Shown here piece after piece: positions 2,199 to 64,000 of a DNA stretch of 64,000 nucleotides; positions within the stretch are counted from its first letter, which is position 1; every line of letters starts with the position of its first letter. The notes under the pieces are model-generated. The model was not told where the DNA came from. It ran no database searches and saw only the letters and a list, made by a program, of their open reading frames with translations. The stretch covers positions 13,748-77,747 of the IMG/VR virus record IMGVR_UViG_2574179769_000003. One strand, given 5' to 3'. A program made the position numbers and the translations under genes. This DNA comes from a virus. Its lineage: Duplodnaviria > Heunggongvirae > Uroviricota > Caudoviricetes.

Positions 2199-4350
2199 TT
2201 ATATATTTAACCATGTATTTCTACTTAAGTTTTCTTTTTTTAGTATTGCTCTATTGACCGTATCTAAATCTCCTATATGGAAACACTTTTCTTTCATTCT
2301 TGTAAGCCCAACATAAATCAAATTGCTATTGAGCATATAAGTGTGACTTGATGGTGTAAATAAAATTACCACCTTGGCAGCGGAACCTTGAAATTTATGC
2401 AGCGTACAAGAATATGCTAATTCGACATTTTGCATATCCGTCTTTTCATATCCAACAAGCAAACCATTGAAATCTATTACAATCAAGCCTCTTTTTGTAA
2501 TATCAACTATTACCCCTGATTCACCGTTTGCAATAAACGTTTGTTCGTTGATAAAGTCATAACAATCTTCGCCCCACATTGTTCCCTTTGAAACAAGAAA
2601 AGCTTTTCGATTATTTTTTGTTTGCATTACAATATCGTTAACATAAAAATTTGTGTTATGCGCTTCGATATGAATATCTGACACCTTACGTTCTTTGTTA
2701 GCTATTGGTTGTAACAATCTGTTAATATTTATACACCCATAATCACCTTTGCGATATGATGACAATACAACCACATCTGAGGTAGAATATCTTTCCAATG
2801 TTTTCGCATAAACTTTTTTTTATACAGTCTAATCCAGCCTCCTTGTCATAGTTCATAAATAAATAATCTTTGTTTTCTCCAAATGCAGTAACTTTATTAT
2901 CATATTTTGTTAGATACAGTTTACAATTTCTTACATCAGTAGCTACTTTCATCAATCCACCCTCGCCATATCTAAATACCTTTGTCAGCATGGTTTTAGG
3001 TATTTTTTTTGATGTCAGTAAGTCATGCATTACGTTTCCACAACCTACTGATGGTAACTGGGCAGGGTCACCTATTACTAGTAGTTTGGTTATATTAAAG
3101 TCGATTGCTTCCAATACAGTTTTGAACAAGAATACATCTGCCATCGAAAACTCATCGATTATAAGCACATCGCAATTCAATTTATTAAACGAGTTATATC
3201 TCCATGTAGGCGGTTGATACCCCAATCCAGTATGAATTGTTTCGGCTTTTGATCCAGTATATTCCGATAAAACTTTGGCAGCTTTTCCAGTTGGTGCAAA
3301 CAAAGCAAACCACTTACTCTTATCTGTTAACATATTAATAATAGCTTTTGCTGAAAACGACTTTCCCGTTCCTGAATATCCGACTAAAATACTAAATTGA
3401 GATTTACATAAATTATGAATGCTAGACAACTGATCATCAGTCAATTCGTATTCATCAATAGTTCTGTAATTTTCAGGATTAACTTCGTATATATCATTGA
3501 TTTCTAACGCCTCATTTATTCTGTATTTTATATACATTTCGGCTTCGTATGTAACTTTTCTCGATACAAAAACATCATTATTTTTATCCTTATTGTAATA
3601 AATATCATCATCTTTGATTGCTTCAAAGAAATGTTGTGAACATTCAGGGGTTACACTTTTAACGATTGATAACAATTTTAGAATATTTATTCTAGTACTT
3701 CCGTTATTTTCAGTTTCGGTAAGATTATATAAAATGCACTCTCTACACCTTTGTAAAGAGGTTCTTAAATTATAACCGAACTCAACAATTCTGTTTTTTT
3801 GAAGTTTTAAAAGTAATTCATCTGCACTTTTAAAACCAATTCCACTCAAAGAACACATACATTTATATGGTTCTTGAATAATTTTTTTACGTACAATTTC
3901 GATTGAAGTATACTTGCTGTACATTTTTCTTAATACATTTAATGAAATATATCCTTTAAATTCATTAATAAGGTCAATTAACATAAAATTATCAATTATT
4001 TTATTCTTGATTTTTTCAAATGTAACATCTTTAATACCTTTAACTAATGACAAATCAACATCTTCATTATCCAGAACCATTTGGATAATATTCGGATAAT
4101 GAAGATACAATTCTGAGGCTTGCCTTTCTGTACATATAGTTCTAAGAAATTGATATGTTTCTTGCTGATTCACTGGTTTATCTCTTGATATCGAAACTAC
4201 TTTATATGTTGTTCCATATTTGTTTTTAGTTGGTATTCCAGTAATTTTATAGTCAGTATTTAAATCCAATTCAGATATTTCTCCCATAATAGACACATTT
4301 CCGTAATTATTTGCAATTACCCTAGGATTTGATTTAAAATCAACATTCAT
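2199..4350 (-). CDS. RecD/TraA-like SF1 DNA helicase (two ORFs joined across an A8 homopolymer frameshift near 2806..2813)
   Basis: Walker A LVGYSGTGKSF, Walker B VLIIDEFSM, VIGDPAQLPSV motif; the downstream fragment carries AYSCTLHKFQGS (helicase motif VI) and YVGLTR. Removing one A from the A8 run fuses the frames (DCIKKVYAKTLERYSTSD). Confidence 0.75.
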
Positions 4351-4424
4351 AGCATATATCCTAAAATTTTCTTTAGAGAAGGTACATCTATTTACTTGCC
4401 CTGTAAATACCGTTTCTTTTTCTT

Positions 4425-7400
4425 CTATAGTTTTATCACCTCATAATCATTTAATATTTCTTCTACTTCATCAGTTGCTATCCATTTCCCTTCAGCATCA
4501 GGTCGCTTTTTAAATTCTTTATCTAACTCCTTTATGCTTAAAACCGAAAACTGGTCAAATGGGTTGTCTCTGAATTTTTTTCCTCTTTTAATTCTTGTTT
4601 TTATCTCTTGTCCATTGTTTAAGTTTCTTATAATTAATCTTGGGGTTGTTGGATTATTTCCTATAACAAAATCTATAACTATATAATACATATTGTTTAT
4701 TTCAGAGTTTGAATAATCAGTATATCCTAAATTTTCAATTTCAAATTTTATCTGCTTTACTACTGGCATTGGTTTTGGGCAAACTTTCTCTAAAGTTATT
4801 GATAGTTCTTTCAAAAGGCTCAAATTATCAATATCTCTATATTGTTTTGGAGTAATTTTTTTTGAATACTTCTCTAAATAATATTCCGATATTCCTATTT
4901 TTTCTAATTTAGATTTTGAAATAATTTTAGCGTTTCTTAATTGAATGTATTTATTATAAACTTCTTCCAAATAAACGTTATTGCCAAAATCCGAAAAATA
5001 ATTAAGACCAATCAAAATCCTTGTTTGTCTTTCATCTAATGATGTTTTACTCATATCATCTAATAATTCTATAAAAGAACTATAGTTATTTTTTGCTAAT
5101 TCAAACAACTCTTCTGCGATCTGACCATTACAATATTTTATACTCTCAATGCCTTGATAGATTGAATTTGTTTTCTTATCCATATAAAATTCAGCCTTAG
5201 AATATCCAAATCTTATTCCATTAACATAACAACCTTTTTGGTTTATATAATTTTTAATATTTTTCATTTTATCAGCATCGCTTTTGTAAATATTTAGTGC
5301 AGCAGTAAACGTCTCTAATGGATAATAATGTCGCAAATATCCACAAGCAAATCCTAAGAATGAATATGGATCAGAATGATTCTTACTAAATAAATACGAA
5401 CTTGCATCTTCTATTACTTTTAAAAAATTGACAATTAATTCTTCTGATTCATTCTCTTTCACCCCATAATTTTCTTTCATAGTTTTAAAAAAGCCCTTTT
5501 TTATATCAGGAATATATTTTTCAGTACCAGTTTTTTTAGCAAAACCACGTCTTATTACATCTGCTTGACCCATCGAATATCCACAAAATATATGCAAGAA
5601 TTCTATAACTTGTTCTTGATATACGAGATACCCTAATGTTGGCGCCAGGAATTCATTTAATGCATAATGTCCATTATCTCTATATAATCCTTTAGCTAAA
5701 CTATCACGATAAGATGCGCCCGCAGGCCTTATTGCCCCATTTGCCATAGACATTAAGTCTATATATGAAAAATCTGGATTTTTTTCTCTTATTTTTTCAA
5801 TTACTTCTGGCTTTAATATATCTTTTAAATAATTACCTGCAAAATCTGATTCAAATTGAAAAATCAATGTGGTATCTTTAGCTAAATCTTCCCAAACATT
5901 CATATCAGTAAAATCCATATTTTCAGGTAATAAAAAGTCTATTTTTGCAAGCTTGCAGGTTTTATAAATTAGTCCAACACAGTCTAATCCAAGTACATCC
6001 AGTTTTACATAATTTAAAGAATCAATTTCTTTCATGTTGATTTGTGAAATTGGGTTTTTGTTTGTTTTACTTCTAAACGTTCCAAATTTTCCTTCAATCG
6101 GGTAAGGCGAAACTACTAGTCCAGCAGGATGAGAACCTACAGAAACTATAGTGCCTGATACCAAATCAACATATTTAAATAATTTTGGATATCGTTTTCG
6201 GTATAATTCATCAATTTCAAACTTTTTGTTATCATTTAAGAATACTGCATTGCTAATTTCTTGAGTTTCATTTAGCGACATTCCCAAAGCACGACCGATA
6301 TCCTTAATTGCACCTTTCATTTTGATAGTGTTAAATGTAATAATATCGCAACAATAAAGACCATCTCTTTTAAACAGATAATCTCTTACCATACCTCTGT
6401 CTTCATTAAACCAATCTGTGTCAATATCTGCTAAGGTAATTCTTTCGGTATTCATAAATCTTTCAAAATTCAAATTATATTTAATACTATCTATTTCAGT
6501 AATTCCCAACAGATATGCAATTACACTTCCAGAAACCGACCCTCGTGAGTATCCAAAATTCACTCCTTGTTTTTTTAGATATGACTTGTAATCTTCTTCA
6601 AGCAACAAAAAATCAATTGCCTCATTATGCTTATAAGTTTGCAACTCATAATTAATCCTTTGAATATAGTCTTTGTAATTTGGAAATTTGTTAATCCCCC
6701 TATTTTTTACACCTTCAACAATTTTTTTCAGTAATACACCTTCAGAATCGTCATACAATTTCGGATATTTTTTTGAATAATCTAATCTGAATTCTTCAAC
6801 CATATCACTCATTATGTTTGTATTCTCAATTGCTTGAAGATACACTTCTTCTGGTAATGCATTTTGAATTTTATATGCCTCAACTAACTCATCATATGTT
6901 TTGAAAGACATATCCCAATTATTTTCATCATTTCCAAAGTTCACCCTTTTACCAATCTGCAAAACTCTTCGCCCCTCTAAATCCTCTTTTGTTAAAGCGT
7001 GAGTGTCAGTTCCAGCGATTAACGGTATTCCAGTTGTATCACTTATATTCTTTAAATATTGATTATATTTTTTTGAAAAGCATCATTATGATGTTGCACC
7101 TCTAAAAAACATCTATGCTTGTTTTTTATTAATAAATTTAAAAATCTTTTTTGAATCGCTTTATCTCCCTTTGCAAGAATGCCACCTACGCAAGCTGTAG
7201 TAATGATAATATTGTCGCTGGTTTCTTCCAATTCTTTTAAGCTAATTCTAGGGTGATAATATTTATGATCTTCTTCAAACGCAATTGAAGATAGTTTATT
7301 TAGCTCTTCAACCCCATTGCCATTTTTTGCTATTAAAACACAATGATAATTATCTCGAATCTTCTCAGATAATTCTTCGGTAACATAAAATTCTTCAGCA

Positions 7401-7606: not shown

Positions 7607-8789
7607 CTGATAATAACTCCTCAAGCATATTATCAAAATCAATGTCAATTTCATTAGAAGTATTGTTATCACCATTACTAATAGATAGCAAATCAATACC
7701 TCCCTTTTCATTTTCTAATTGTTTTAAATATTCTTTATAAGGCAACAATAAATTAGCACTATAACCACACAACGTTGAGTAATAATAGCTTTGAGTTTTT
7801 ACACTATCCTTATCATCCCAAAACAATTTAGAATCATGACTAAGTTTATACATATCAGTTTTTTCATTGATTTCATCAATTGTATTGATTAATAAATCTT
7901 TCCACTGTTGTAATAATTCTTGTGTTACTTCAACATACACCCAACAGTCTTCAAATATAAATTTTTCTTTTATGTCATCAGGCAAACAGTCTATTGAGTT
8001 ATCTTGCATTACTTTCATTATATATTCATCGACTTGTTCACTATCGTATTTAAAATGTTTTAACCAAACCATTATATTAGACACCAGTGATTCGCCAAGT
8101 TTACATCTTTCGATTTCTCTAACTTTTTTCTTGCCATTTTTTTGTTCTATAGTAACATTTTGATACTTTAGAAAATTCCAGCCAATCTTAATTTTATTTA
8201 ATGGAATACCCAACTGATGAATTCCAATTGCATACAGTGCCAGCTGACCACATTCTTCCAATGCTTTTTTACCTTTATAGATAGTGCTTGTTTTAAAATC
8301 CCCAATTATACAATTACCATCTTTTGTTGTAATCAATATATCAATATATCCTTGCAATACAATATCATGTCTTAACTTTATCAAAATAAATTGCTCAATC
8401 ATTTTTTTATCAACTATTGATTTATGATTTTTAAAAAAATGTGTTAAATCTTCGTTATATTTAATTTTTATATTATTGTTTTTTTCGGAATTATTACGGT
8501 CAAATTTCAAATCAGCCAAATCAATATTTAACATCCAGCCATCTCGAAAACGCTCTATCATATCATTATATTGAATTTTCCCCTCATAATACTCCTCTAA
8601 AACACCGTGTGCTACCCCGCCTAGGGGTGCATACGCACAATTATTATTATCTTCAGGAATATGTTTAACGTATCTTAAAAAATATTCATAATGTGATGTC
8701 ATATAGGAATGCACCCTAGACCAACTCCACAGAAAATCAACAGAGTATTTTTTACATATTCCTGAAAGTTCTTCTTTTGTCTTTCTCAA
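7599..8789 (-). CDS. putative RecB-family PD-(D/E)xK exonuclease
   Basis: 396 aa; IGDFKTSTIYKGKK and QLALYAIGI resemble the DxK and QhxxY motifs of Cas4/RecB-like nucleases; sits inside the replication module. Confidence 0.5.
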   Translation of the reverse strand: MRKTKEELSGICKKYSVDFLWSWSRVHSYMTSHYEYFLRYVKHIPEDNNNCAYAPLGGVAHGVLEEYYEGKIQYNDMIERFRDGWMLNIDLADLKFDRNNSEKNNNIKIKYNEDLTHFFKNHKSIVDKKMIEQFILIKLRHDIVLQGYIDILITTKDGNCIIGDFKTSTIYKGKKALEECGQLALYAIGIHQLGIPLNKIKIGWNFLKYQNVTIEQKNGKKKVREIERCKLGESLVSNIMVWLKHFKYDSEQVDEYIMKVMQDNSIDCLPDDIKEKFIFEDCWVYVEVTQELLQQWKDLLINTIDEINEKTDMYKLSHDSKLFWDDKDSVKTQSYYYSTLCGYSANLLLPYKEYLKQLENEKGGIDLLSISNGDNNTSNEIDIDFDNMLEELLSDV

Positions 8790-9922
8790 TTTTTATTTTT
8801 TAAACTATCTAAGTATTTTTTATGTTCTTTTTCGTCATATTTTATTTTATACTTCATTAAAAATTCGAATATATTACTGCTCTTATCTGCAATAGAATCT
8901 TTGGGATTTAATAAATTATATTTATCATATGTGTAATAAACATTTCTGATACCATAAAATTTTTCGCACATATGACGTATTTCATTAATACTTATATCTT
9001 TATCCAAACTAATGATAATATCTACATTTAAACCAATTAAAATCCTTGCCTGTTCCGAACTTAATGTGTGTCCACTTAAAGCTACTCCAGTTGGATCTTT
9101 TCTAGAATGTCTTTTTAATACACTTTTTTCCGATTCATATACAACTACATAACCATATTTTGTTATATCTTCTTTATTTTCCCATAATCCATATAGGTTA
9201 TGACTTTTTGGGTAAGTAGGAGTAATAAAATATTTTTTTATTCCCAATTCTTCATAATTATCAATAACTGTTCTCTGATTATATCCTAGCAATTTACCAT
9301 CAAGCCAGTATCTTAAGGGAATTATATTTCTCTTATATAAGTGACTATATGCTAACCCGAATTTTTTTATGGTTTGTGGAACAATGCCTTCACGAAACCA
9401 ATCAATATGGATATACGGTATATAATCAATATTCTCCATTTCATCCAAATCTATGTCTTGTACATAAACAGTGCTTCGTTTGATTTTTTTAAACACTTCT
9501 AATGGATCATTAACTTGTTTTTTTACTTTAACATCTTTATTGTATGTTAATGGTATATCAAACAATTTGTGTACATATTTAATTGCTTCTCGAAAATCAA
9601 AATTTTGATTAGTTCTAGAAAAATTATACTGTATCAGTGTAAATATATCTGATTTGATCTCATCATTACTTTTAAAGTATTCTTCTCTTGTATAGTTACG
9701 AACATTAATATATTTATTATTATTAACAACTATACAAGAAGGATTATCTCCATCAATGTTCCCACAAGTAAAATATTCTTTATTTTTATTATATTTAATA
9801 TGATGACATCCAATTTCATTTAGAACATATTCGATCTTACAATTATTAAAAATGTATTCTTTTAGTTCTAATCCTGTCATCTTTAACCCTCTAATAATCC
9901 ATTGGAACGTTTGTGAATCCAA
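8786..9922 (-). CDS. dnaG: DnaG-like DNA primase (zinc-finger + TOPRIM)
   Basis: N-terminal CHH...C...C zinc-binding segment; TOPRIM-like YVVVYESEKSVL ... SLDKD acidic motifs; lies between the helicase loader/helicase and polymerase genes. Confidence 0.55.
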   Translation of the reverse strand: MDSQTFQWIIRGLKMTGLELKEYIFNNCKIEYVLNEIGCHHIKYNKNKEYFTCGNIDGDNPSCIVVNNNKYINVRNYTREEYFKSNDEIKSDIFTLIQYNFSRTNQNFDFREAIKYVHKLFDIPLTYNKDVKVKKQVNDPLEVFKKIKRSTVYVQDIDLDEMENIDYIPYIHIDWFREGIVPQTIKKFGLAYSHLYKRNIIPLRYWLDGKLLGYNQRTVIDNYEELGIKKYFITPTYPKSHNLYGLWENKEDITKYGYVVVYESEKSVLKRHSRKDPTGVALSGHTLSSEQARILIGLNVDIIISLDKDISINEIRHMCEKFYGIRNVYYTYDKYNLLNPKDSIADKSSNIFEFLMKYKIKYDEKEHKKYLDSLKNKN

Positions 9923-11342
9923 CTTCTTTCAAAATATTTCTACTTAAATCATGTTCAACTACTATCTGATATGTATTGGCTGCACCCTCTCTGTTTTTAA
10001 CAATAAATATTATTTGATAATGCTTATTATCAGCCAATCTTACTGGCACCTTTGACAATCCATTTTTACCAGCATACGTATAGATATTTAACGCCCGTTT
10101 ACCGCCTGGTCTTTCATCGTCAAATAATGTTCTTATCATCAAACAGGTACTTGCAGGATCAACAATATTTTTTGCCATACCAATATTGTCTTGAGTATAA
10201 TATCTTTGCATTACACTTCCTTTTGATAATTGAAATGTGATAAGTATATGTACATTTTTACTCTCTGGTTTTACAATATCGTTAATTTCAACCATGTTTT
10301 GTTGCATTTGCAACCATGCATGACTCTCAACCTTTCCTGCATCCATTTTATAAGTGTCTAGTGCAAAATATCTAATACCAAGACTTATGTATTTATTCAT
10401 AATTTTAATAACATTTTTAGTTTTATACTTTTTAAAAGGAATTATAGTAATAACATTATCTTTGTCTTTATTTTCTATCCATTTTGCTGCTTCAAGTAAT
10501 AATTCTTTGGTCTCATTTTTGAAAGAGCCATCTCTAACTGTTTGTTTTTGAAGATCTTTTTTTATAACATTATTGGCCACATATACCAAAAATTCACGTT
10601 GCCATTTTTTTAGTCCATCCTCATTAAGCATAATGACTATTTTCTCATTATTTTCAATAATGCTTGGTATCGTAGAACTTCTTAAAAAAGCAGATTTTCC
10701 AACATTAGAGAGCCCACCAATTAAAGTAATTGAACCCATATATTGTCCGCCAGTTTCATTAGTTAACATCCTCATGTTGTGATATGGTAAACCAACTGCC
10801 AACCCTTCATCTAATTCATCAATTAAATCTCTAATTTTGTAAGATATACTGTATGACTTCATATCTGTATCAGCATTGATGAATATATCATTAAACATAC
10901 ATTCATATTCTTCATAGATTTCTTCAGTTGTACAATCTATAAATTCTTTTAACTTGTTGTCATCAACAATAATTCCCATTTTACAGAGTTTTATTACTAT
11001 GTTCCATTTTTTCAATTCACTAATATATCCATTAAAATTATCTTCAGAAATATATTCGATAGCATTTTTTATAGTATTATAACCGCCAAAATTTTCATAA
11101 ACTGTTTTTAATTTTGGATGTTTTTCTAAATATAAACCAACAGTAATAACATCTAATACATTCTTTTTTTCAATATTATATAAGTCATTCACTATTGCAA
11201 AATATACCTTCCAAGCATTATTGGTAAAATCATTAATGCTTAATTCAACGTTGGATAATAATTCAGGTTTTTTAAATAATATTGAAACTATATTTGCTTC
11301 ACAAGGCAACTTGATTTCAGCAACCTTTTTAATAGTACTCAA
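9891..11342 (-). CDS. dnaB: DnaB-like replicative DNA helicase
   Basis: DnaB N-terminal domain-like start (EANIVSILFKKPELLSNVELSINDFTNNAWKVYFAI); P-loop GGLSNVGKSAF in a RecA-like C-terminal domain. Confidence 0.7.
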   Translation of the reverse strand: MSTIKKVAEIKLPCEANIVSILFKKPELLSNVELSINDFTNNAWKVYFAIVNDLYNIEKKNVLDVITVGLYLEKHPKLKTVYENFGGYNTIKNAIEYISEDNFNGYISELKKWNIVIKLCKMGIIVDDNKLKEFIDCTTEEIYEEYECMFNDIFINADTDMKSYSISYKIRDLIDELDEGLAVGLPYHNMRMLTNETGGQYMGSITLIGGLSNVGKSAFLRSSTIPSIIENNEKIVIMLNEDGLKKWQREFLVYVANNVIKKDLQKQTVRDGSFKNETKELLLEAAKWIENKDKDNVITIIPFKKYKTKNVIKIMNKYISLGIRYFALDTYKMDAGKVESHAWLQMQQNMVEINDIVKPESKNVHILITFQLSKGSVMQRYYTQDNIGMAKNIVDPASTCLMIRTLFDDERPGGKRALNIYTYAGKNGLSKVPVRLADNKHYQIIFIVKNREGAANTYQIVVEHDLSRNILKEVGFTNVPMDY

Positions 11343-13014: not shown

Positions 13015-14049
13015 TTAACTTGTTTTTATGTTTTGTGGATAAATGCAATTTTCATAATCACCATAAATTGACATAGAATATTCAATTTCATTGCTACACT
13101 TTTTTGTACTGTTCTCATCTGTATGGTTATATTCGGTAATCTTAACAATATAACCCAACGATCTTGCTAAACTAGAAATATCATTGGCAAGATGCTTAGA
13201 ATAAATACTAATGCAAATATTATTCCCTCTTGCTATATGCCCCGTATTAATGATTCCACTTAATAAAGCAAGCCTATTTTCAATAGATGAATAAATATAA
13301 ATTTCAGGAACAAACTTCTCTTTTGACCCACGATTATTTAATCCTAATTTCTTAATTACTTCTTTGAAAGTATTCGATTTATCTGTTTCACATACAATAC
13401 TTGCTTGTTTATAATTATCAAAACATCTTGTATGAAGTTTAACATTTAAGGATGAAATCTCATTAGCTAACTCTTCAAATAGCTCATTCTCTGAGTTTGT
13501 AAAAGTATATACATCACCAGTGAACCCACCATTACCCAGCATTAATCCTAGAGCATAGGGCGATAATGGTAATTTATTTTGATTATCAAATTCAATAGGT
13601 AAGTTTATAGGGACACTATATTTATAGTTAAATTTACTTTTTTTATTAATGTTGTTAACGGGAGTTTTATAATCTTTTAAAATTTCCTCCAATGTTACTA
13701 CTTTATAACGATAGTCATTATATTTTCCCATATTTGAACGTTGCTTTGCTGTTTGCACTGTCCATAAATGTTTTAGTCCACATCGTGTAGAAGTACCATC
13801 TTCAAATGTTACTTCATAAACATCTTTTACACCTTGTGGGAAAACTCCAGTTACGGGATATGTTTTACCATCTCTACCATAAACCAAGTCTCCAATTTGA
13901 ATCTCTCCCATTGGTTTCCAACCTGCGCTTGTAAGCACTGGTTCTGAGATAGGTTGTTCTTTACCAATCTTAGGTTCTCCTAATAAGATTGTATTATATG
14001 ATAAAGGATCAACTTTTACGTGATTCTTTTTACCAAATCTTCTAACCAT
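13015..14049 (-). CDS. Hint-domain LAGLIDADG homing endonuclease (free-standing)
   Basis: Hint-like N-terminus (VLTSAGWKPMGEIQIGDLVYGRDGKTYPVTGV); two LAGLIDADG-type motifs LGLMLGNGGF and LLSGIINTGH. The start overlaps the upstream stop (TAATG), so it is a separate gene rather than an in-frame intein. Confidence 0.6.
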   Translation of the reverse strand: MVRRFGKKNHVKVDPLSYNTILLGEPKIGKEQPISEPVLTSAGWKPMGEIQIGDLVYGRDGKTYPVTGVFPQGVKDVYEVTFEDGTSTRCGLKHLWTVQTAKQRSNMGKYNDYRYKVVTLEEILKDYKTPVNNINKKSKFNYKYSVPINLPIEFDNQNKLPLSPYALGLMLGNGGFTGDVYTFTNSENELFEELANEISSLNVKLHTRCFDNYKQASIVCETDKSNTFKEVIKKLGLNNRGSKEKFVPEIYIYSSIENRLALLSGIINTGHIARGNNICISIYSKHLANDISSLARSLGYIVKITEYNHTDENSTKKCSNEIEYSMSIYGDYENCIYPQNIKTS

Positions 14050-37030: not shown

Positions 37031-37486
37031 TTTTATGATGATTAATACACGTTCTGTGATTTTATGGTACTCATAGTTTTAATCATCATGATTGACAACA
37101 AATTAATAAGGGGGCTATCAATTTATTGTCAGATTTGTTAATCTCAACTACAGTGTGAGCTAACTCAATATAGCTGGTGGGGCGATTGTTCCCACATCTC
37201 ATCGGATATTACAAAATACCCTAACTTTACATATTGCTATGTGTGATAGCCATCTTTCTATCCTCAGCTACTTTGATTGATAAAACAGTCTACCCAAACA
37301 TTTACAGCATTATGTCTATAATGTTTCTTCACTTACTGTCATGTACATGGTTTAATCCATTAGCTTCCCTTGGCAAACTTGTCTAGAATTATTTACCAAG
37401 ATAGTACCCCTAATCAATTAATAGCTACCAATCAAAACTATTAGTTGATTTCAAATATTTTTTTTTGAGATGAGTTTTTGCAATTA

Positions 37487-37697: not shown

Positions 37698-37774
37698 TAT
37701 GGTGGACGTTATCGGATTTGAACCGATCAACTGAGAATTATGAGTTCTCTGCTCTAACCTATTGAGCTAAACGT
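37698..37774 (-). tRNA. tRNA-Met (anticodon CAU; elongator or Ile2-type), CCA encoded
   Basis: Hand-folded cloverleaf: acceptor GGACGTT/AACGTCC, D-arm GCTC-AATAGGTTA-GAGC, anticodon arm GAGAA-CTCATAA-TTCTC, T-arm ATCGG-TTCAAAT-CCGAT, discriminator A, CCA. Confidence 0.8.
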
Positions 37775-37802
37775 CCAAATTGTAGAAAATAATTTCTACA
37801 AA

Positions 37803-58011: not shown

Positions 58012-58484
58012 TAATTCTTCCTCCTTAAATTAATTTTATTTTTAATTAATAACGCCAATCAGTTAGCTTTTAATGTATGAAAAATACAACTTTTTGATGT
58101 ATAGTTTAAACATTTATTGATAATTATATTGTATCTTTGTTTCTCTTAATTATCAACAAATTTTAAACATCAACCAAAGAAGAGCTTTTTTGATTGGCAT
58201 TATGGTATTAAAAATAAAATGTTTATTTTTAATTTTTATGTTAAAAACCAAGATTGAATTAACCTTGGTTGCAATGATTTAAATTTGATTAGTTAAGTAG
58301 GTACTTGTAAATAATAAATACAAGCGTATCTAATCACCCGATACTATCAAGGATTTTCACCATCTCAAGCCAATCATTATTGCTATGTTATCACAACATT
58401 GCAACTACTGTTTAGGGTATTAGGAATCTAACGACTTTCTAACTCTCTAAATATATTGGTAGAGATTTGATATCAAGTATCTAA

Positions 58485-58538
58485 TTGTCAATGAACTAAT
58501 AAGAAATAATTACCCAATCTCCCAAAGTTCATTGACAA
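58485..58538. promoter_or_regulatory. 13-bp perfect inverted repeat (TTGTCAATGAACT ... AGTTCATTGACAA) overlapping the -35 of the plus-strand promoter; operator-like
   Basis: Arms at 58485..58497 and 58526..58538. Confidence 0.55.
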
Positions 58539-58560
58539 TTATTGATTAATAATATATAAT
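58532..58560 (+). promoter_or_regulatory. consensus sigma-70 promoter TTGACA-17-TATAAT (plus strand)
   Basis: TTGACA 58532..58537, TATAAT 58555..58560. Confidence 0.65.
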
Positions 58561-58704: not shown

Positions 58705-58733
58705 ATTATACACGAATTACTTGTATTTGTCAA
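58705..58733 (-). promoter_or_regulatory. consensus sigma-70 promoter TTGACA-17-TATAAT (minus strand) with conserved downstream leader AAGTTGTAAGGTAGGAG
   Basis: Minus-strand reading: TTGACA 58733..58728, TATAAT 58710..58705; points into the leftward gene block. Confidence 0.6.
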
Positions 58734-58951
58734 GTATTCCTTGTATTTTTTTGAGGATTTCTTTTTTTTATAACTTCCTTAGATTTCAAATCATCCTCAA
58801 TCAATTTTTTAATATAGCCTGCTTTATTGTCTAAATTATCAAGATAATCAAGTATTTCTTTATCTTTATTTTTAGAAAATTTGATAGTGATAACTTTAGA
58901 ATTTTTTTTATCACTTTTAGCATTGGCTTTTCTTTTAGCTTCACTCACCAT
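58730..58951 (-). CDS. small basic protein, possibly ribbon-helix-helix DNA-binding
   Basis: 73 aa; KVITIKFSKNKDKEILDYLDNL...AGYIKKLIEDDL resembles a CopG/RHH fold; flanked by the two duplicated minus-strand promoters. Confidence 0.4.
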   Translation of the reverse strand: MVSEAKRKANAKSDKKNSKVITIKFSKNKDKEILDYLDNLDNKAGYIKKLIEDDLKSKEVIKKRNPQKNTRNT

Positions 58952-59086: not shown

Positions 59087-59115
59087 ATTATACATGACAA
59101 ACGCTAAAAAGTCAA
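59087..59115 (-). promoter_or_regulatory. sigma-70 promoter TTGACT-17-TATAAT (minus strand), paralogous to 58705..58733 including the leader ATAGTTGTAAGGTAAAGG
   Basis: Minus-strand reading: TTGACT 59115..59110, TATAAT 59092..59087; drives ORF 58730..58951. Confidence 0.6.
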
Positions 59116-59198: not shown

Positions 59199-59227
59199 TT
59201 GACAATTAAATAATACAAGTATATTAT
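59199..59227 (+). promoter_or_regulatory. sigma-70 promoter TTGACA-17-TATTAT for the rightward HTH gene
   Basis: TTGACA 59199..59204, TATTAT 59222..59227, RBS TAGGAGG, ATG at 59250. Confidence 0.6.
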
Positions 59228-59249: not shown

Positions 59250-59792
59250 ATGTCTAAAGAAATTATTTTTAAATATAACAACAATAACCAATTAAAAAAA
59301 ACTATTAAAGAAATAGCTTTGTATAATGATATTAAAATGTCTAGTATAGCTAACAACCTAAACATTAGCAATAGTCAATTAACAAATACTTTAAATAAAA
59401 AAAATATTAACTTTAATGATATTAAAAAGATATTAGACGTAGTTGGATATGATTTAGTGTTAGAATTTAGACCTAAAGACAACTTTAGTATCAAAAATAA
59501 ATTACCTGATACAATTAGTATAAATACGAATAACAATATGGAAATCAACACAGATATTGTTGACGATGATATATTGGCATTGCTAAATGATACAATCAAA
59601 TATGGCTACAGTGGTATAAACGTTGTAGATAATTGGTTGGAAAATAACGGTTACATTATAAATAGCAAGTTGTTTGATAGTGATGGTAAGATATTAGATA
59701 ATGCTAGAGCGCTATTGGTTAAAGGTGTATCGTTTGGAAAAACCAACGAACTAATTAAGAAGAAAGTCTTTATTAAAGATAAGAAGTTGTAG
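59250..59792 (+). CDS. XRE-family helix-turn-helix transcriptional regulator (CI/Cro-like position)
   Basis: HTH segment IKEIALYNDIKMSSIANNLNISNSQLTNTLNKKN...DIKKILDVVGYDLVLEF; first gene of the rightward transcription unit. Confidence 0.55.
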   Translation: MSKEIIFKYNNNNQLKKTIKEIALYNDIKMSSIANNLNISNSQLTNTLNKKNINFNDIKKILDVVGYDLVLEFRPKDNFSIKNKLPDTISINTNNNMEINTDIVDDDILALLNDTIKYGYSGINVVDNWLENNGYIINSKLFDSDGKILDNARALLVKGVSFGKTNELIKKKVFIKDKKL

Positions 59793-59799
59793 CCTATGC

Positions 59800-61000
59800 T
59801 AGTATAGTCCTTTTACATGCTATAAGCTATTTATTTAACGTATAAAGGCTAAAATGATATTATAGTAGGTAAGCTAAGGTATATAGGTAATGTGGCTTAG
59901 AATGGAAATATTTGATTTATAGAGTATGTGAGTAGAGATATGATAATTGTAATAGTAGATATGCTAATGTAGTAATGTGGATATAGGATACACATAAAAA
60001 CATAGAGTGATGTAAGCTACATATACAGAAAATATTATAGCAATGTACCAATATAACATATTAATGTAATATATTAATGTAGTGCTCCAATATAGTATAT
60101 TAGTACTATGCTATAGTAATATTACAGTTATAGTAGATAGAGTTAGTGGGTTAGTTAGATGAATCTGGTTAATTGACTTGATATGGTTGATTGATATGGT
60201 TGGTTGGATTGGATATGTAGTGTAATTGACATAACTGTATTAATGTAATAGTACAGTAGTACAGTTGATAGTGTCAACTAATATAGTCGGTATATAGATA
60301 TAATTACTACTAAAAGTAGTTTTCGATACCGTTTCTAAGCTGATACCAATTAACAACCCTATCATCAACCAGACCAACTCACCAACTCAATAAATTGTAT
60401 TAAAATCAGTACAATACAATAAATAATACTGTACTACTATAAGTAGTATGGTATTTTATTTTAGATAACCCGGGGTATATCGAACTTTTCAAGCTATTTA
60501 AAACTGCTTAAAATCGCCTATCTACCCCATTTTTCTACCACACGATCACCCCAAATTTCACCGACCGATTAAAATTTACTATCCAACAACCATAAAAATC
60601 ACCCTATTTTAACTTTTTCAAAAAAATACAATTTTGCATCATATTTGTCCACAAACCTATCGGTAACTTATCGGTATAACTACCTTAAATACCCCTACTT
60701 TATTACCATAATCTTCGTATATTCTAACCATAACTATCCAACCATCTAATTAGCAATTTATTGTATTTTACAATTAATCATTAAATCACCTTTTCACTTT
60801 ATCCCTAAACATCCGTATTATCTCCGAAGAACAAAAAGTTGTATATTTTGATTTAAAACCGACCTTTAAAATACCTATTTCTATCCTTATTAATATATTG
60901 ACTTATTTGCGAAATTTTTCAGCATTATTAACAACATTAAAACCTAATTTACCGAATCGGTATATCCGAACCTGAAATAGTCAAATTTTAAATCCCAAAA
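59800..61000. other. 1.2 kb ORF-free region with extreme strand asymmetry (C-poor until ~60300, then G-poor), internal inverted and direct repeats and TATCGGTA/TACCGATA iteron-like motifs; candidate origin of replication or long non-coding locus
   Basis: No ORF >60 aa in any frame; left half is almost only A/G/T (TAG/GTA-rich), right half A/C/T; repeated words (GATATGGTTG x2, AGTACAGT x2 with inverted partner TACTGTACTACT at 60430, TATCGGTA x2-3, GATACCG x2). Confidence 0.4.
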
Positions 61001-61042
61001 AATCAAACTTGCAATTTTGATATATTTTTTTACTTTGCTAGT

Positions 61043-61071
61043 TGACATCAACTTATATTTAGTGTATAGTG
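61043..61071 (+). promoter_or_regulatory. sigma-70 promoter TTGACA-17-TATAGT inside a copy of the ACTTTGCTAGTTGACATCAACTT repeat (plus strand)
   Basis: TTGACA 61043..61048, TATAGT 61066..61071; an inverted partner of the repeat lies at 61131..61146. Confidence 0.6.
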
Positions 61072-61439
61072 ATTGTAGTAACGATAGCTGGATTGTTTTT
61101 CAGTCCAGTTTAAATTCAAATATATAATGTTACTTAGCAAAGTAGATATTAGCTTATTAAATCAATTTTAAGAAACGTTTTATTGATTTGTGACTATTTA
61201 TACCTATTCAATTAAATGTTTCTTAGAATTAAAATATAAGCCATATTTAGATATATGACTATTTTGGTGATGACATATATATTTGATATGAATAATTACT
61301 AAATCTAATCGAAAGGAGAAATATTATGAATACAGGTTAATCTATTACAATAATTCAATCTATCTTAATTTATGATATGGTTATCTACTGTCATCCTACT
61401 CAGTAATTAACAAGATAGCAGAAAATATAATACGTCCAA

Positions 61440-61600
61440 TCCCGAATCGAGTTTACGTCAGTAAACGACGATAAGGGTTGGCGAGCGCCGAGCACGTTAG
61501 TGCGAAGGTAAGACAAGTGAAGCGCAGCGAAACGATTCTCTTTCTGTTCTTTTTGAAAGGGTAAAAGCATTCTCTGTGCGCCCCCATATAACAATTTGTA
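61440..61600 (+). ncRNA. GC-rich structured element (candidate cis-regulatory RNA or small RNA) in the 5' leader of the rightward early operon
   Basis: ~50% GC island inside ~25% GC flanks; hairpins GTTTAC-GTCA-GTAAAC, GCGCAG...CTGTGCGC and GAGGC...GCCTC; lies between the 61043 promoter and the first gene, preceded by a 4-codon mini-ORF (ATGAATACAGGTTAA) with RBS. Confidence 0.35.
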
Positions 61601-61821
61601 TCTATTTCATTTATTTTAAGAGGCAAGGGTACGCCAGTAACCGCCTCGAATATCTCATTTATATTGAAAGTAACAAAAAGATTATATTTGTATATTTAAT
61701 TTGGCATTACATTTGAATAAAAAATATTTACTTTTTGCCAAGCGAGGTATAAAAAATATTAACCTTTTGTCTTAATTTAAGTATAAAAAATATTAACTTA
61801 TTGTCAAAAAGGAGGAAATCA

Positions 61822-62601
61822 ATAATAAAAGATCAAACAAAAAAAGATAATTTCATAATCATTCCCAAACATATTATTCAAGAAGGTGTCAAAAATAATA
61901 TTTACTTAATGACTTACATTTATCTTATGTATAGAAAAAATGGCAATGACGGTGTTGAATTTTCAAAAAAATCGTATTATTCGTTTATGGGAATAAAAAA
62001 GCCACAATTAAAAAAACAAGCTGATATTATTTTGGGTGATATATTAGAAAAATACAGCAATGCAATTATTAATATTGTTGATTTGAGTTTAAACGACTTA
62101 ATTAACATTAAGCTCAATGTTGTAGATAGTAAAAAAAAATTTAAGGAATTGCATCCTGAAAAAAATGTATTTAAATTTGCTAAAATATATTTTGACGAAA
62201 TAGATTTAATTATTGAGCAGGAAAAAAAATCTGAATTATCAGTATCAGCAAAAAAAATATTCCTATTCTTATCCTACCATCGCCTAAAGATGATTAAAAG
62301 AAATGGCGCCTTAGTAGAAACAGCTCCTGAAATTTCATATTTTCGTATAAATGATTTATCAGAACAGATAAATATAAGTATGCGAACTATATCACGTATG
62401 CTTAAAATCTTAAGCGATATTAAAATTATCAAGACTAATCAAACAAAAACATTAAAAATCCCAGACACCACTTTTTTTATCAAGGGGTATATCATCGTGG
62501 CGGATTACCATTCTCGGGATATTAAATACTCAGCAGAAGAAAATCTCAAATATGGTGTTGAGTATGTAAATAACAAACTGAACGAAAGGAGGAAATTATA
62601 G
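61822..62601 (+). CDS. putative replication initiation / replisome-organizer-like protein (HTH); probable ATA start
   Basis: ORF track begins at TTG 61801, but the RBS AAGGAGG (61809..61815) is followed 6 nt later by ATA ATA (61822); C-terminal HTH-like ISMRTISRMLKILSDIKIIK; position typical for a replication initiator. Confidence 0.4.
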   Translation: MIKDQTKKDNFIIIPKHIIQEGVKNNIYLMTYIYLMYRKNGNDGVEFSKKSYYSFMGIKKPQLKKQADIILGDILEKYSNAIINIVDLSLNDLINIKLNVVDSKKKFKELHPEKNVFKFAKIYFDEIDLIIEQEKKSELSVSAKKIFLFLSYHRLKMIKRNGALVETAPEISYFRINDLSEQINISMRTISRMLKILSDIKIIKTNQTKTLKIPDTTFFIKGYIIVADYHSRDIKYSAEENLKYGVEYVNNKLNERRKL

Positions 62602-62614
62602 TGCATAAAGATGA

Positions 62615-62975
62615 TGAGTTATTTTTGGATGGATTAATAGAATCTGTAAATAACAAGTCAAGATATAAGGATTTATCCTATAAATCTGTTAATACCGCAT
62701 GGAAATCGGACATATTTAAAGATGTTAAATTTTTAGCATTGGAAAATCAGATCGCATTAAATCAGCAGTTTAGAAAAATCTATACAATATTTAACAATTT
62801 AAGCAAGATGTCTGTTAGCGATATTCAAAAAGAATATTGTAAAAATAAGAGTTTCGCAAAATGTTATCCATTAGACGCAATCGAGGCTGATGCTAAATAT
62901 AAAGAATTATTTAAACAAATTATAGATGCTTTAAAAGATAAAAATAAGGAAATTAAACCAAAGGAGGAAAATTAA
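62615..62975 (+). CDS. hypothetical protein (GTG start after GGAGGA RBS)
   Basis: 124 aa ORF; GGAGGAAATTATAGTG start context. Confidence 0.45.
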
Positions 62976-62976
62976 A

Positions 62977-63816
62977 ATAGAATTACAAGTTTTTAAAAAT
63001 AATGAATTTGGCGAAGTGAGAAGTTTATTAATTAATGGAGAACCTTACTTTGTTGGAAAAGATGTATGTTTGGCATTTGGAGATACTAACCATAAAAGAT
63101 CTTTATCAAAAATTGATGAGAATGATAAAGATACATATAGGGTTGATACTTCTGGAGGCAAACAAAACATGGTTATTATTAACGAAAGTGGTTTGTATTC
63201 TTTATTATTTGCCATGCAACCTCAAAAAGCCAAGGGGGTGTCACAAAACGAACCCCTTATACAGCAGCGTATTGAAAAATTACGTGAATTTAAAAGATGG
63301 GTAACTCATGATGTTTTGCCTACTATTCGTAAAACTGGAGGCTATGCTAATAATGAAGAAATTTTTGTTGAGTCATATTTTCCTGAGATGGACGAAGCCT
63401 CAAAACAATTTATGGTCAATTCACTAGTTCAAATTAAAGAGAAAAATAAACTCATACAAAAGCAAAAAGAAGAAATTGCTTATAAGGAAGAAGTTATTAT
63501 CAATTTAGTTGACGATGTTTCGCTTGCTGAAAAACGTCAAGTTCTTAATCGTGTTGTTAGACATAATAAAGCTAATGCACAAAAACGATGGAATACTCTT
63601 TATCGTGAATTTGATAATAAATACCATATTAGAGTTTATAGCAGAATGGAAGCATACAATAAACACAACAAACCTAAATGCAAGAATAGAGTCGACTATA
63701 TTGATAAAGTAATGGGTAAATTGCCCGAGCTTTACGAAATCGCATGTAAACTCTATGAGAACGATGTTAAAGAACTGGTACAGGAAATGTATGAGCTTAA
63801 CAATATTAAAAATTAA
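62977..63816 (+). CDS. Bro-N-domain antirepressor; start must be the ATA at 62977
   Basis: Bro-N conserved N-terminus ELQVFKNNEFGEVRSLLINGEPYFVGKDV lies upstream of the first GTG/ATG (63016); the frame opens at 62935 and contains no ATG/GTG/TTG; AAGGAGGA RBS 8 nt before the ATA; WVTHDVLPTIRKTGGY motif downstream. Confidence 0.6.
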   Translation: MELQVFKNNEFGEVRSLLINGEPYFVGKDVCLAFGDTNHKRSLSKIDENDKDTYRVDTSGGKQNMVIINESGLYSLLFAMQPQKAKGVSQNEPLIQQRIEKLREFKRWVTHDVLPTIRKTGGYANNEEIFVESYFPEMDEASKQFMVNSLVQIKEKNKLIQKQKEEIAYKEEVIINLVDDVSLAEKRQVLNRVVRHNKANAQKRWNTLYREFDNKYHIRVYSRMEAYNKHNKPKCKNRVDYIDKVMGKLPELYEIACKLYENDVKELVQEMYELNNIKN

Positions 63817-63834
63817 ACTAAAGGAGGATAAGGA

Positions 63835-64000
63835 ATAGCCGTTTATTTAGATAACGCTGCTAAGAGTAAGCCTAAAAAAGAGGTCTTGGACGTTATCGTT
63901 AAATCATTACACGAAGACTGGTATAACCCCTCTTCTCTTTACCATCCTGCCCAGGAGGTAAAAAAGAAACTTGAAGATGCCAGGTCAGTGATTGCAAAAA
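63835..64000 (+). CDS. cysteine desulfurase (NifS/IscS family, class V aminotransferase), N-terminal part, continues beyond window; ATA start
   Basis: AVYLDNAAKSKPKKEVLDVIVKSLHEDWYNPSSLYHPAQEVKKKLEDARSVIAK matches the NifS/IscS N-terminus; the frame opens at 63832 with only ATA (63835) available, 6 nt after AAGGAGGA. Confidence 0.6.
   Translation, partial: MAVYLDNAAKSKPKKEVLDVIVKSLHEDWYNPSSLYHPAQEVKKKLEDARSVIAK

Follow-up and report, generated by a model that had tools for sequence, protein, structure and literature searches.

A conserved non-coding control region with a strand-specific mini-hairpin cluster in an SPbeta-like prophage: a candidate priming signal beside a Rep-like gene

What is a GC-rich, hairpin-forming island doing in a long, AT-rich leader that encodes no conserved protein? 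The question is raised by the leader of a rightward operon in a 64,000-nucleotide (nt) stretch of viral DNA (positions 13,748 to 77,747 of IMG/VR record IMGVR_UViG_2574179769_000003; the whole stretch is referred to here as the window). There, a consensus promoter is followed by about 730 nt (61071-61800) that hold only short, non-conserved open reading frames (ORFs), much as an earlier reading of the sequence (the original prediction) had described. That prediction likened the leader to a cis-acting RNA, such as an attenuator, a riboswitch, or a put-like antitermination RNA, and considered a small RNA gene as well. As described below, the element is real, but these cis-acting classes find no support. 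The leader is a conserved non-coding control region of several parts, and its GC island is best described as a cluster of mini-hairpins confined to one strand. What could such a region be for? The reading we favor, at a probability of roughly 0.4, is that transcription exposes the island as single-stranded DNA, which would then serve as the priming signal of a replication origin beside a Rep-like gene.

CONSERVATION OF THE LEADER

Is the leader more than a chance arrangement? Related loci (L002, L003, L007 to L011, and L022 to L030) were collected through homologues of the dual winged-helix protein encoded just downstream and through a conserved neighbor resembling YonO, the phage RNA polymerase. 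The layout recurs in about 11 of these loci (about seven distinct sequences), in the conserved order of promoter, AAGGAG site with mini-ORF, island, A+T-rich tract, and winged-helix gene (Table 1). When each related locus is searched with a profile of the island core, a single copy turns up, in every case on the operon strand. The profile finds none in the more distant YonO-encoding relatives (L012 to L021), elsewhere in the window, or in SPbeta, where the yonR-yonP and yonN-yonK gaps likewise hold no island homologue. The best-conserved parts of the leader are the block containing the Shine-Dalgarno (SD) sequence and mini-ORF (88% identical to L003) and the island itself (88 to 98%), compared with 35 to 70% nearby. 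Because these two parts are the best conserved and the island is present once and on one strand, the leader element must be regarded as more than chance.

TABLE 1 Features of the leader and of the gene that follows it (window coordinates)
Feature	Position	Strand	Description
Consensus sigma-A-type promoter	61042..61070	+	TTGACA 61042-61047, 17-nt spacer, TATAGT 61065-61070; 11 of 12 matches
5'-proximal hairpin of predicted transcript	61087..61109	+	GCUGGAUUG-UUUUU-CAGUCCAGU; in minimum free energy and centroid structures of whole-leader fold
SD and 4-codon mini-ORF	61311..61340	+	GAAAGGAG 61311-61318; ATG AAT ACA GGT TAA (MNTG) 61326-61340
P1, long imperfect hairpin	61433..61483	+	From fold; clade A only
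P2 hairpin	61487..61509	+	GCAC-GTTA-GTGC 61492-61503 in 3-bp outer helix (GCC/GGU); 100% paired, nine distinct sequences
Invariant core	61516..61535	+	AGTGAAGCGCAGCGAAACGA; mini-hairpin unit GCGCAGC 61522-61528
3' extension common with L002	61585..61650	+	AAUUUGUAU block and P4 hairpin GAGGC...GCCUC (61620-61647); 90% identity to L002
Three direct repeats	61715..61805	+	GTATAAAAAATATTAAC-N-TTGTC; 25 nt, spaced 32-34 bp, in 73% A+T DNA, ending at gene start
Dual winged-helix DNA-binding protein gene, putative Rep/DnaD-like	61801..62601	+	266-aa protein

BLAST of the leader region against 50,697 phage genomes returned no homologue, and exact-pattern scans with the first two cores gave chance matches only (L004 to L006). 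Homology to L002 starts at the left edge of the island and homology to L003 stops in the middle of it; the island is therefore a conserved joint between mosaic modules. As a separate observation, an unrelated high-GC viral contig (L005, 11905-11955) holds three tandem copies of a P2-like unit, GCACGTTAGTGC(G/A)AAG.

PROMOTER, RIBOSOME-BINDING SITE, AND REPEATS

The promoter from which the leader would be transcribed is present as predicted, although one position to the left of the 61043-61071 first given. The match alone proves nothing, since a scan in 25% GC DNA picks out 45 promoter-like sites, and 43.4 are expected from shuffled sequence. Conservation is more informative: an equivalent 11/12 promoter lies 420 to 806 nt upstream of the island in 10 of the 11 related loci, with counterparts kept in L003, L024, L002, L023, L030, L007, and L009 to L011. 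Close to the predicted 5' end, the hairpin stem CUGGAU/AUCCAG is also kept in L003, where the loop differs.

The SD-led mini-ORF noticed originally is indeed in the sequence. Does it encode a leader peptide? The AAGGAG ribosome-binding site (RBS) is kept in 10 of 11 loci, 115 to 290 nt downstream of the promoter, and is missing in one. What follows it varies: seven of the 11 loci have a mini-ORF of two to six codons (MNTG, MNIG, MNMS, MNKRWG, MNQ, or MN), and three (L002, L023, and L022) have no AUG. Since the RBS is kept while the mini-ORF varies, there is no conserved leader peptide, and the block appears to serve ribosome loading. Kept whether or not a start codon follows, this strong SD of an untranslated leader has the sequence hallmark of a STAB-SD-type element.

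At the other end of the leader, the direct repeats are triplicated in L002 as well, with coordinated sequence changes, and they covary with the downstream protein; other variants of the winged-helix protein are preceded by different repeats or by none. Phased direct repeats beside an A+T-rich tract and a putative rep gene make up the layout of an iteron-type origin.

ANATOMY OF THE GC ISLAND

The GC-rich hairpin segment reported in the original prediction stands out clearly. In 100-nt windows, GC content reaches 43 to 50% over 61400-61650, compared with 17 to 25% in the flanks, which places the island at about 61430-61650. The + strand folds better than shuffled sequences (z of -2.7 over 241 nt, -3.06 over 148 nt, and -5.2 for the whole leader), and the - strand does not (z of -0.7 and -1.6). 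Folding as RNA is significant for the window (z of -3.1) and for L022 (z of -2.4); most homologues do not rise above shuffles, those of L002, L007, and L008 scoring +0.2 to +0.8.

Are the individual hairpins conserved? A covariance model made from the window's predicted fold was used to realign all island copies, the P1 rows of clade B being force-fitted. In the resulting P1/P2 alignment, 88.7% of cells are paired, compared with 24 to 38% when the partner is slid by one to three columns, and 13 pairs change on both sides. When only the clade A rows, whose alignment is confident, are counted, fewer changes remain, but these are still clear. The covariation check on homologous phages that had been proposed for this leader is thus positive, in that both stems are kept by compensatory changes. 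In the apical stem of P1 these are UA/CG/AU and UA/CG exchanges in L002, L023, and L030, and L024 replaces one G-C with G.U. P1 is absent from clade B, which keeps only P2 and the linear core. The second pair of P2 is CG, UA, or GC, and the third is AU or G.U: clade A changes CG to GC, along with G.U to G-C in the outer helix, and clade B changes CG to UA and AU to G.U. All P2 loops (GTTA, GCTA, GGTA, or GTA) follow the form G(N)NA closed by C-G. The wobble pairs in the covarying stems (G.U, or G.T as DNA) are valid on the + strand only.

Downstream of P2 lies the invariant core, a purine-rich and largely unpaired stretch that ends in AGTG-(A/T)-AGCG-(loop)-AGCGAAACGA. It occurs in every family member except the L003/L024 type and is only approximate in L022 (GTAGCGTAGCGTAGTGA). 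Across the family this 20-mer changes nowhere but in one loop (C, T, TA, TT, or CT), which belongs to a GC-[G(N)NA]-GC unit. L003 and L024 have a duplicated GCAC-GTTA-GTGC hairpin instead of the invariant 3' core. The 3' extension of the island is absent from L003, L023, L030, and clade B; in L002 the closing pair of P4 changes from C-G to U-A.

Several other descriptions of the island were tried and rejected. It is not protein coding on the + strand, where all three frames of the core contain stops, and the - strand ORFs of 57 to 64 aa are broken by a 1-nt indel between homologues (CCG-AGC versus CCGAAGC). TRAP-like NAG triplets with a 5-nt period form a real but short run of five to six, better explained by overlapping GCG-N-AGCGAA units. 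A pyrimidine tract after the core (CUCUUGUAU / UGUUCUUUUUGAAA), which weakly resembles boxA, is not conserved in L023 or L030 and was dropped.

MINI-HAIRPINS IN THE ISLAND

What kind of element is the GC-[G(N)NA]-GC unit? A mini-hairpin DNA motif has been described, GCGNAGC/GCGNNAGC or GC-G(N)NA-GC, in which two G-C pairs are capped by a sheared G-A closing pair (PMC13037366). These units are extraordinarily stable as DNA and much weaker as RNA, with r(GCGAAAGC) having a melting temperature of 39°C (PMC13037366). They are rarer than expected in genomes and frequent at phage replication initiation sites, examples being GCGAAAGC at the primase start of phage G4, GCGTTAGC in St-1/alpha3, and ssiA of RSF1010 (PMC13037366).

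The unit in the window's core (Table 1) matches this definition, and the units of the relatives are GCGTAGC, GCGTAAGC, GCGAAGC, GCGTTAGC, and GCGGAGC. In the relatives, an island of about 110 nt has two to four of them, and every one is on the + strand, the - strand having none; the background in the whole window is about 0.03 per kb. With every unit and the G.T-containing stems on the + strand, the island has, in its strandedness, the one-strand property of G4-type single-strand initiation (ssi) signals.

A CANDIDATE PRIMING SIGNAL

How might these parts work together? In the reading we favor, they would have the following roles. (i) The host-type promoter would make a long untranslated transcript. 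(ii) The 5' hairpin, together with a strong RBS and its start-stop mini-ORF of two to six codons, may protect that transcript from 5'-exonucleolytic decay in a STAB-SD-like manner. (iii) The + (non-template) strand would be single stranded while the purine-rich transcript is made or stays hybridized to the template. (iv) The exposed + strand could then fold into mini-hairpins that resist single-stranded DNA-binding protein, creating a priming signal of the G4 type. (v) The A+T-rich tract with its three phased repeats would be bound by the dual winged-helix protein. Why DNA rather than RNA? The DNA form is favored because most homologues fold no better than shuffles as RNA and because mini-hairpins are far weaker as RNA.

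Some observations temper the case for an origin here. The window's own island contains a single unit, and the whole window has two per strand where 1.4 are expected; as one unit is at compositional expectation, what carries the argument is that the units cluster and are conserved in the family. The leader, which is internal to the prophage, does sit at the boundary of divergent gene blocks and at the minimum of the cumulative GC skew, but that minimum is confounded with gene orientation. Finally, a profile search at E <= 1e-3 links no locus outside the family to it; the wider distribution described below is therefore suggestive and not established. A search for DnaA boxes found no cluster.

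What makes the question worth asking is that replication origins and early control circuits are essentially unmapped in the SPbeta-like phages, large temperate phages that have their own minimal RNA polymerase. The leader region is a concrete origin candidate. If it does hold a priming signal, the mini-hairpin logic of G4 would extend from single-stranded DNA phages and enterobacterial plasmids to large double-stranded DNA phages of gut Firmicutes, and it would be linked to transcription.

COMPARISON WITH KNOWN SYSTEMS

The closest likeness is to the G4-type ssi signals of G4, St-1, alpha3, and plasmids, which are also strand-specific hairpin clusters with GCGNNAGC/GCGNAGC units, as here in a non-coding phage region. 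The St-1/alpha3 variant GCGTTAGC is found in L022, L034, L035, and L045, and GCGAAGC is found in L007 and L008. Furthermore, the 20-mer core occurs on the viral strand of a microvirus intergenic region. The differences are considerable. The island belongs to a double-stranded temperate Erysipelotrichales phage of about 124 kb and not to a single-stranded DNA phage or an enterobacterial plasmid. It lies inside a promoter-driven leader and has no sequence homology to the G4 origin, and its part in priming is a predicted one.

The ssoA origins of rolling-circle plasmids are similar in size (about 100 to 160 nt), in folding on one strand, and in their flexible position relative to rep. In ssoA, a terminal loop some 50 nt past RSB holds the CS-6 sequence TAGCGT. 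In most members of the family, TAGCGT follows at about 35 to 40 nt after a GCGCCGAG stretch, which has CCGAG in common with RSB. TAGCGT is present in L002, L023, L007 to L011, and L022 and not in the window (AGCGCA), L003, or L024. The full RSB (TTATGCCGAGAAAATTT) is absent, only CCGAG/GCCGAG being shared (GCGCCGAG, window 61485-61492), and the family's TAGCGT is outside the terminal loop of the main hairpin. The L002 island has no BLAST match among 72,556 plasmids, and the L008 island has only short plasmid matches in unannotated DNA, with no annotated sso among them.

The origin of the lactococcal phage c2 provides a precedent for the transcript, since it depends on an essential untranslated RNA, PE1-T. 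As in c2, the leader is a non-coding region between divergent gene blocks in which the first promoter on one side would make an untranslated transcript. The c2 transcript is one whose sequence or structure matters and whose sequence is diverse across relatives while its function is conserved, features that the leader recalls. Unlike the window leader, with its conserved RBS/mini-ORF and winged-helix gene, the c2 origin lacks an RBS after PE1 and works without any phage protein, and the two share no sequence similarity.

How would a long untranslated RNA survive? In Bacillus, an RBS or a hairpin near the 5' end stabilizes long downstream RNA even when it is untranslated, STAB-SD being the classic case. 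The leader has the same kind of GAAAGGAG(G)-type SD far from the gene start, lacking a start codon in L002, L023, and L022, and a 5' hairpin as well. It differs in that the SD of seven of the 11 loci leads into a real AUG-AAU start with a stop after two to six codons, and here the stabilizer is a putative one.

DISTRIBUTION BEYOND THE FAMILY

Does the motif extend beyond these prophages? A scan of IMG/VR for the 20-mer core found 14 loci, five known and nine new, where about three to four would be expected by chance; two high-GC matches look coding or chance. Among the others, L039 is a microvirus (F capsid protein and Rep protein) with the 20-mer between genes, on the gene-sense (viral) strand. 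In L034 the distance from the 20-mer to two DnaD_N genes and a RecD2-like helicase gene is 120 nt, the genes being on the opposite strand, and in L037 a Toprim-DnaB primase-helicase follows it after 470 nt. In L038, from an SP6-like phage, similar purine-rich repeats come ahead of it, in L032 it adjoins the gene for the terminase large subunit, and the SP6-like matches are near CCTAAGG arrays typical of genome ends.

Plasmids hold comparable stretches. Unannotated, purine-rich DNA with two to four GCGN(N)AGC units is seen in a Lactiplantibacillus plantarum plasmid (L045, 1940-2040) and in Aeromonas MOBF conjugative plasmids (L046, 1990-2200), the latter with a DNA methylase gene, DUF3560, and an antitoxin gene close by. 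Both have 23 to 34 nt of near-identity to the clade B island.

It would be a bolder and, in our estimate, rather unlikely proposal that all of these represent an unrecognized, cross-phylum class of mini-hairpin clusters in mobile elements, spanning Firmicute SPbeta-like phages, microviruses, SP6-like phages, and the Lactiplantibacillus and Aeromonas plasmids. Such clusters would be transcription-exposed priming signals: the purine-rich transcript, driven by the promoter and stabilized by ribosomes, would form an R-loop, and the displaced non-template strand would fold into hairpins that resist single-stranded DNA-binding protein and recruit primase. If true, the origin would be coupled to transcription by a design so far undescribed among large temperate phages of Gram-positive bacteria.

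ALTERNATIVE EXPLANATIONS

Could the island act as RNA after all? The most serious rival is a tentative one, less probable than a priming signal: a cis-acting leader RNA in which a hairpin and the invariant purine tract bind a conserved host or phage factor, much like boxB and boxA of lambda nut or a LoaP-type element. It would then set elongation, processing, or stability and hence expression of the winged-helix gene and the YonO-type polymerase. This explanation stays viable, since nothing in the promoter, 5' hairpin, RBS, or covarying stems conflicts with it. The promoter is conserved upstream on the island's own strand, G.U pairs are formed on the + strand, and the window and L022 do fold significantly as RNA. 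No part of the leader is better conserved than the island, recruitment of antiterminators by small leader hairpins has precedents, and GNRA-like loops are common in RNA too (PMC13037366). Like the nut, HK022 put, and LoaP systems, the leader combines a small conserved hairpin with a conserved linear element ahead of a long phage operon. An RNA element of this kind would be a new leader motif controlling entry into late gene expression.

The specific RNA classes fare less well. A scan for intrinsic terminators found no terminator-like site on the + strand in 61079-64000 or in the leaders of L009 and L024. In these three, the leader and the DNA up to the YonO-like gene therefore contain no predicted terminator for an attenuator to use or an antiterminator to overcome. 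A riboswitch or other compact RNA is hard to reconcile with the unstructured islands of L002, L007, and L008 and with a part common to all relatives that is purine rich and mostly unpaired. The HK022 put RNA is a double hairpin of about 65 nt, conserved and required; no double hairpin is common to the two clades, P1 being missing from clade B. In addition, the loops GUUA, GCUA, and GUA are not GNRA, nor is the loop UNCG, and no N-, Q-, or LoaP-like gene was identified. The 20-mer is antisense to the DnaD-like genes of L034 and lies between genes in the microvirus, neither of which is expected of a leader RNA. Rfam 15, at gathering scores and at E <= 10, has no match on the island of the window or of 8+3 relatives, so that no family is assigned even below threshold, and ARAGORN detects no tRNA or tmRNA fragment there. 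It follows that the island is no rRNA or tRNA remnant and no attP core; acquisition of host rRNA, the outcome that the original prediction had named as fatal to an RNA element, finds no match, and stems of the island are kept by compensatory changes. What stands of the RNA proposal is a real, conserved, strand-specific element with covarying stems downstream of a promoter; what falls are the attenuator, riboswitch, put-like, and leader peptide classes.

A trans-acting small RNA, processed or independently transcribed, is improbable. Immunity RNAs such as CI of phage P4 or c4 of phage P1 would be the model, and GC-rich hairpins in an AT-rich leader, with a Bro/Ant-type antirepressor gene downstream, are what one might expect of one. 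A TATAAT box (61426-61431) that ends 7 nt short of P1 is common to the window, L003, L024, and L002; it has no -35 element, and its counterparts in L023 and L030 are degenerate. The island is not followed by a terminator, and the Rfam C4 family does not match it. When the core was scanned for duplexes against both strands of the 64-kb window, the best score was -27.9 kcal/mol, compared with -25 to -36 for shuffled sequences.

Still less probable is a pac element or another site bound by protein as double-stranded DNA. The opening point of the SPbeta genome does map between yonR and yonP, the syntenic gap, and the terminase gene beside the L032 match and the genome-end arrays near the SP6-like matches are suggestive. 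A double-stranded site, however, predicts neither compensatory stems nor strand-specific G.T wobbles nor mini-hairpins on one strand. SPbeta itself lacks the island yet shares the strand-biased blocks upstream of it (see below), which are better pac candidates.

Least probable is a hairpin that the phage's own YonO-type polymerase would use as a promoter or recognition element. The model here is N4 virion RNA polymerase, whose single-stranded hairpin promoters are mini-hairpins with 3-nt GGA/GAA loops (PMC13037366). The island does lie in an operon encoding a YonO-like enzyme, and the promoter recognized by YonO is not yet known, but the YonO-dependent start of SPbeta is upstream of yonK and downstream of yonO, the motif occurs in phages without YonO (the microvirus and SP6-like phages with a T7-type RNA polymerase), and the distant YonO-encoding relatives L012 to L021 lack the island.

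HOST AND OPERON CONTEXT

The window is identical to a stretch of contig PHNQ01000039.1 (358 kb) of Thomasclavelia cocleata (GCA_002803405.1), a gut bacterium of the Erysipelotrichales that is host to this large prophage of about 27% GC. Related viral contigs measure about 124 kb. Relatives have YonJ-, YonG-, and HU-like genes and encode a protein of 602 to 928 aa. The latter has a faint match to an RdRP family, and the copy in an Enterocloster phage is annotated as an RNA-dependent RNA polymerase; its sequence fits a YonO-type single-subunit RNA polymerase. Because its relatives carry Yon-type genes and this polymerase, the prophage is considered SPbeta-like.

The leader separates two gene blocks. 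The leftward one (window 1-58 kb) is the early/replication module, with a Pol III alpha-like polymerase, RecD2- and DnaB-like helicases, and a PD-(D/E)XK nuclease. The rightward operon, which starts after the leader, is syntenic with SPbeta yonP-yonO-yonN...yonG and encodes the winged-helix Rep/DnaD-like protein, a Bro antirepressor, an aminotransferase, and the YonO-type RNA polymerase. To call these the rightward early genes, as was done originally, is mistaken, because the replication genes are in the leftward block and the rightward operon, by its yonP-yonO synteny, leads to the phage RNA polymerase.

In SPbeta, the YonO-dependent late operon starts with an unannotated non-coding RNA (PMC5467207). 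The yonN-yonK gap (L031, 19153-20833), 1.68 kb of unannotated DNA at 42% GC, corresponds to that RNA.

THE WINGED-HELIX GENE

Is the protein encoded after the leader an initiator? Its structure did not separate an initiator of the RepE/RepA/Pi class from a regulator, and homologues are extremely rare, with six clusters among 5.8 billion proteins. The start of the gene is also unusual. A strong SD (AAAGGAGG, 61808-61815) is followed by ATA ATA AAA, and canonical starts are limited to a TTG ahead of the SD, at 61801, and the ATG at 61909 that public annotation uses (230 aa). A non-canonical start is likely. Tandem winged-helix paralogues follow the island in L003 (three, 8455-10768) and L024 (at least two, 4197-5753).

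STRAND-BIASED BLOCKS AND OTHER FEATURES

Upstream of the promoter, 59600-61000 is an ORF-free pair of blocks with extreme strand bias around a hinge hairpin (60425-60455). The first is C poor and G rich (G 19 to 25%, C 3 to 9%); the second is G poor and C rich (G 3 to 8%, C 19 to 31%) with many ATCGGTA/TACCGA repeats. Every relative has such a pair ahead of its leader promoter, with as much as 40% C and 1% G, and SPbeta has a shorter one, with TCGTA/TACGAT repeats, that occupies the yonR-yonP gap to which pac/the opening point maps. The pair is a candidate for a pac region or a bidirectional Rho-type insulator. Within the C-poor block, a GGTTGGTTGGATTGG-type run of GG tracts at 60190-60215 (ggttgattgatatggttggttggattggatatg) could form a two-tetrad G-quadruplex. 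L002 has a 460-nt C-depleted block (420-880) inside its leader, between the SD and the island, where the window has its block upstream of the promoter; non-coding modules have therefore been shuffled between relatives.

Further upstream, near-perfect consensus promoters cluster on both strands (58482-58560, 58705-58733, 59087-59115, and 59199-59227), and one 12/12 match overlaps with a 16-nt inverted repeat that is perfect (TAATTGTCAATGAACT / AGTTCATTGACAATTA). The promoters flank a gene for a 180-aa Cro/CI-type helix-turn-helix protein (59250-59792, +) and one for a 73-aa protein (58730-58951, -), which we take, as a guess from its sequence, to be of the ribbon-helix-helix type. This region is probably the lysis-lysogeny switch. 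Elsewhere in the prophage, a skipping-rope RNA at 37169-37272 (-) scores above the Rfam gathering threshold (RF02924, 48.9 bits), and a tRNA-Met gene (37700-37776, -) lies 430 nt from it.

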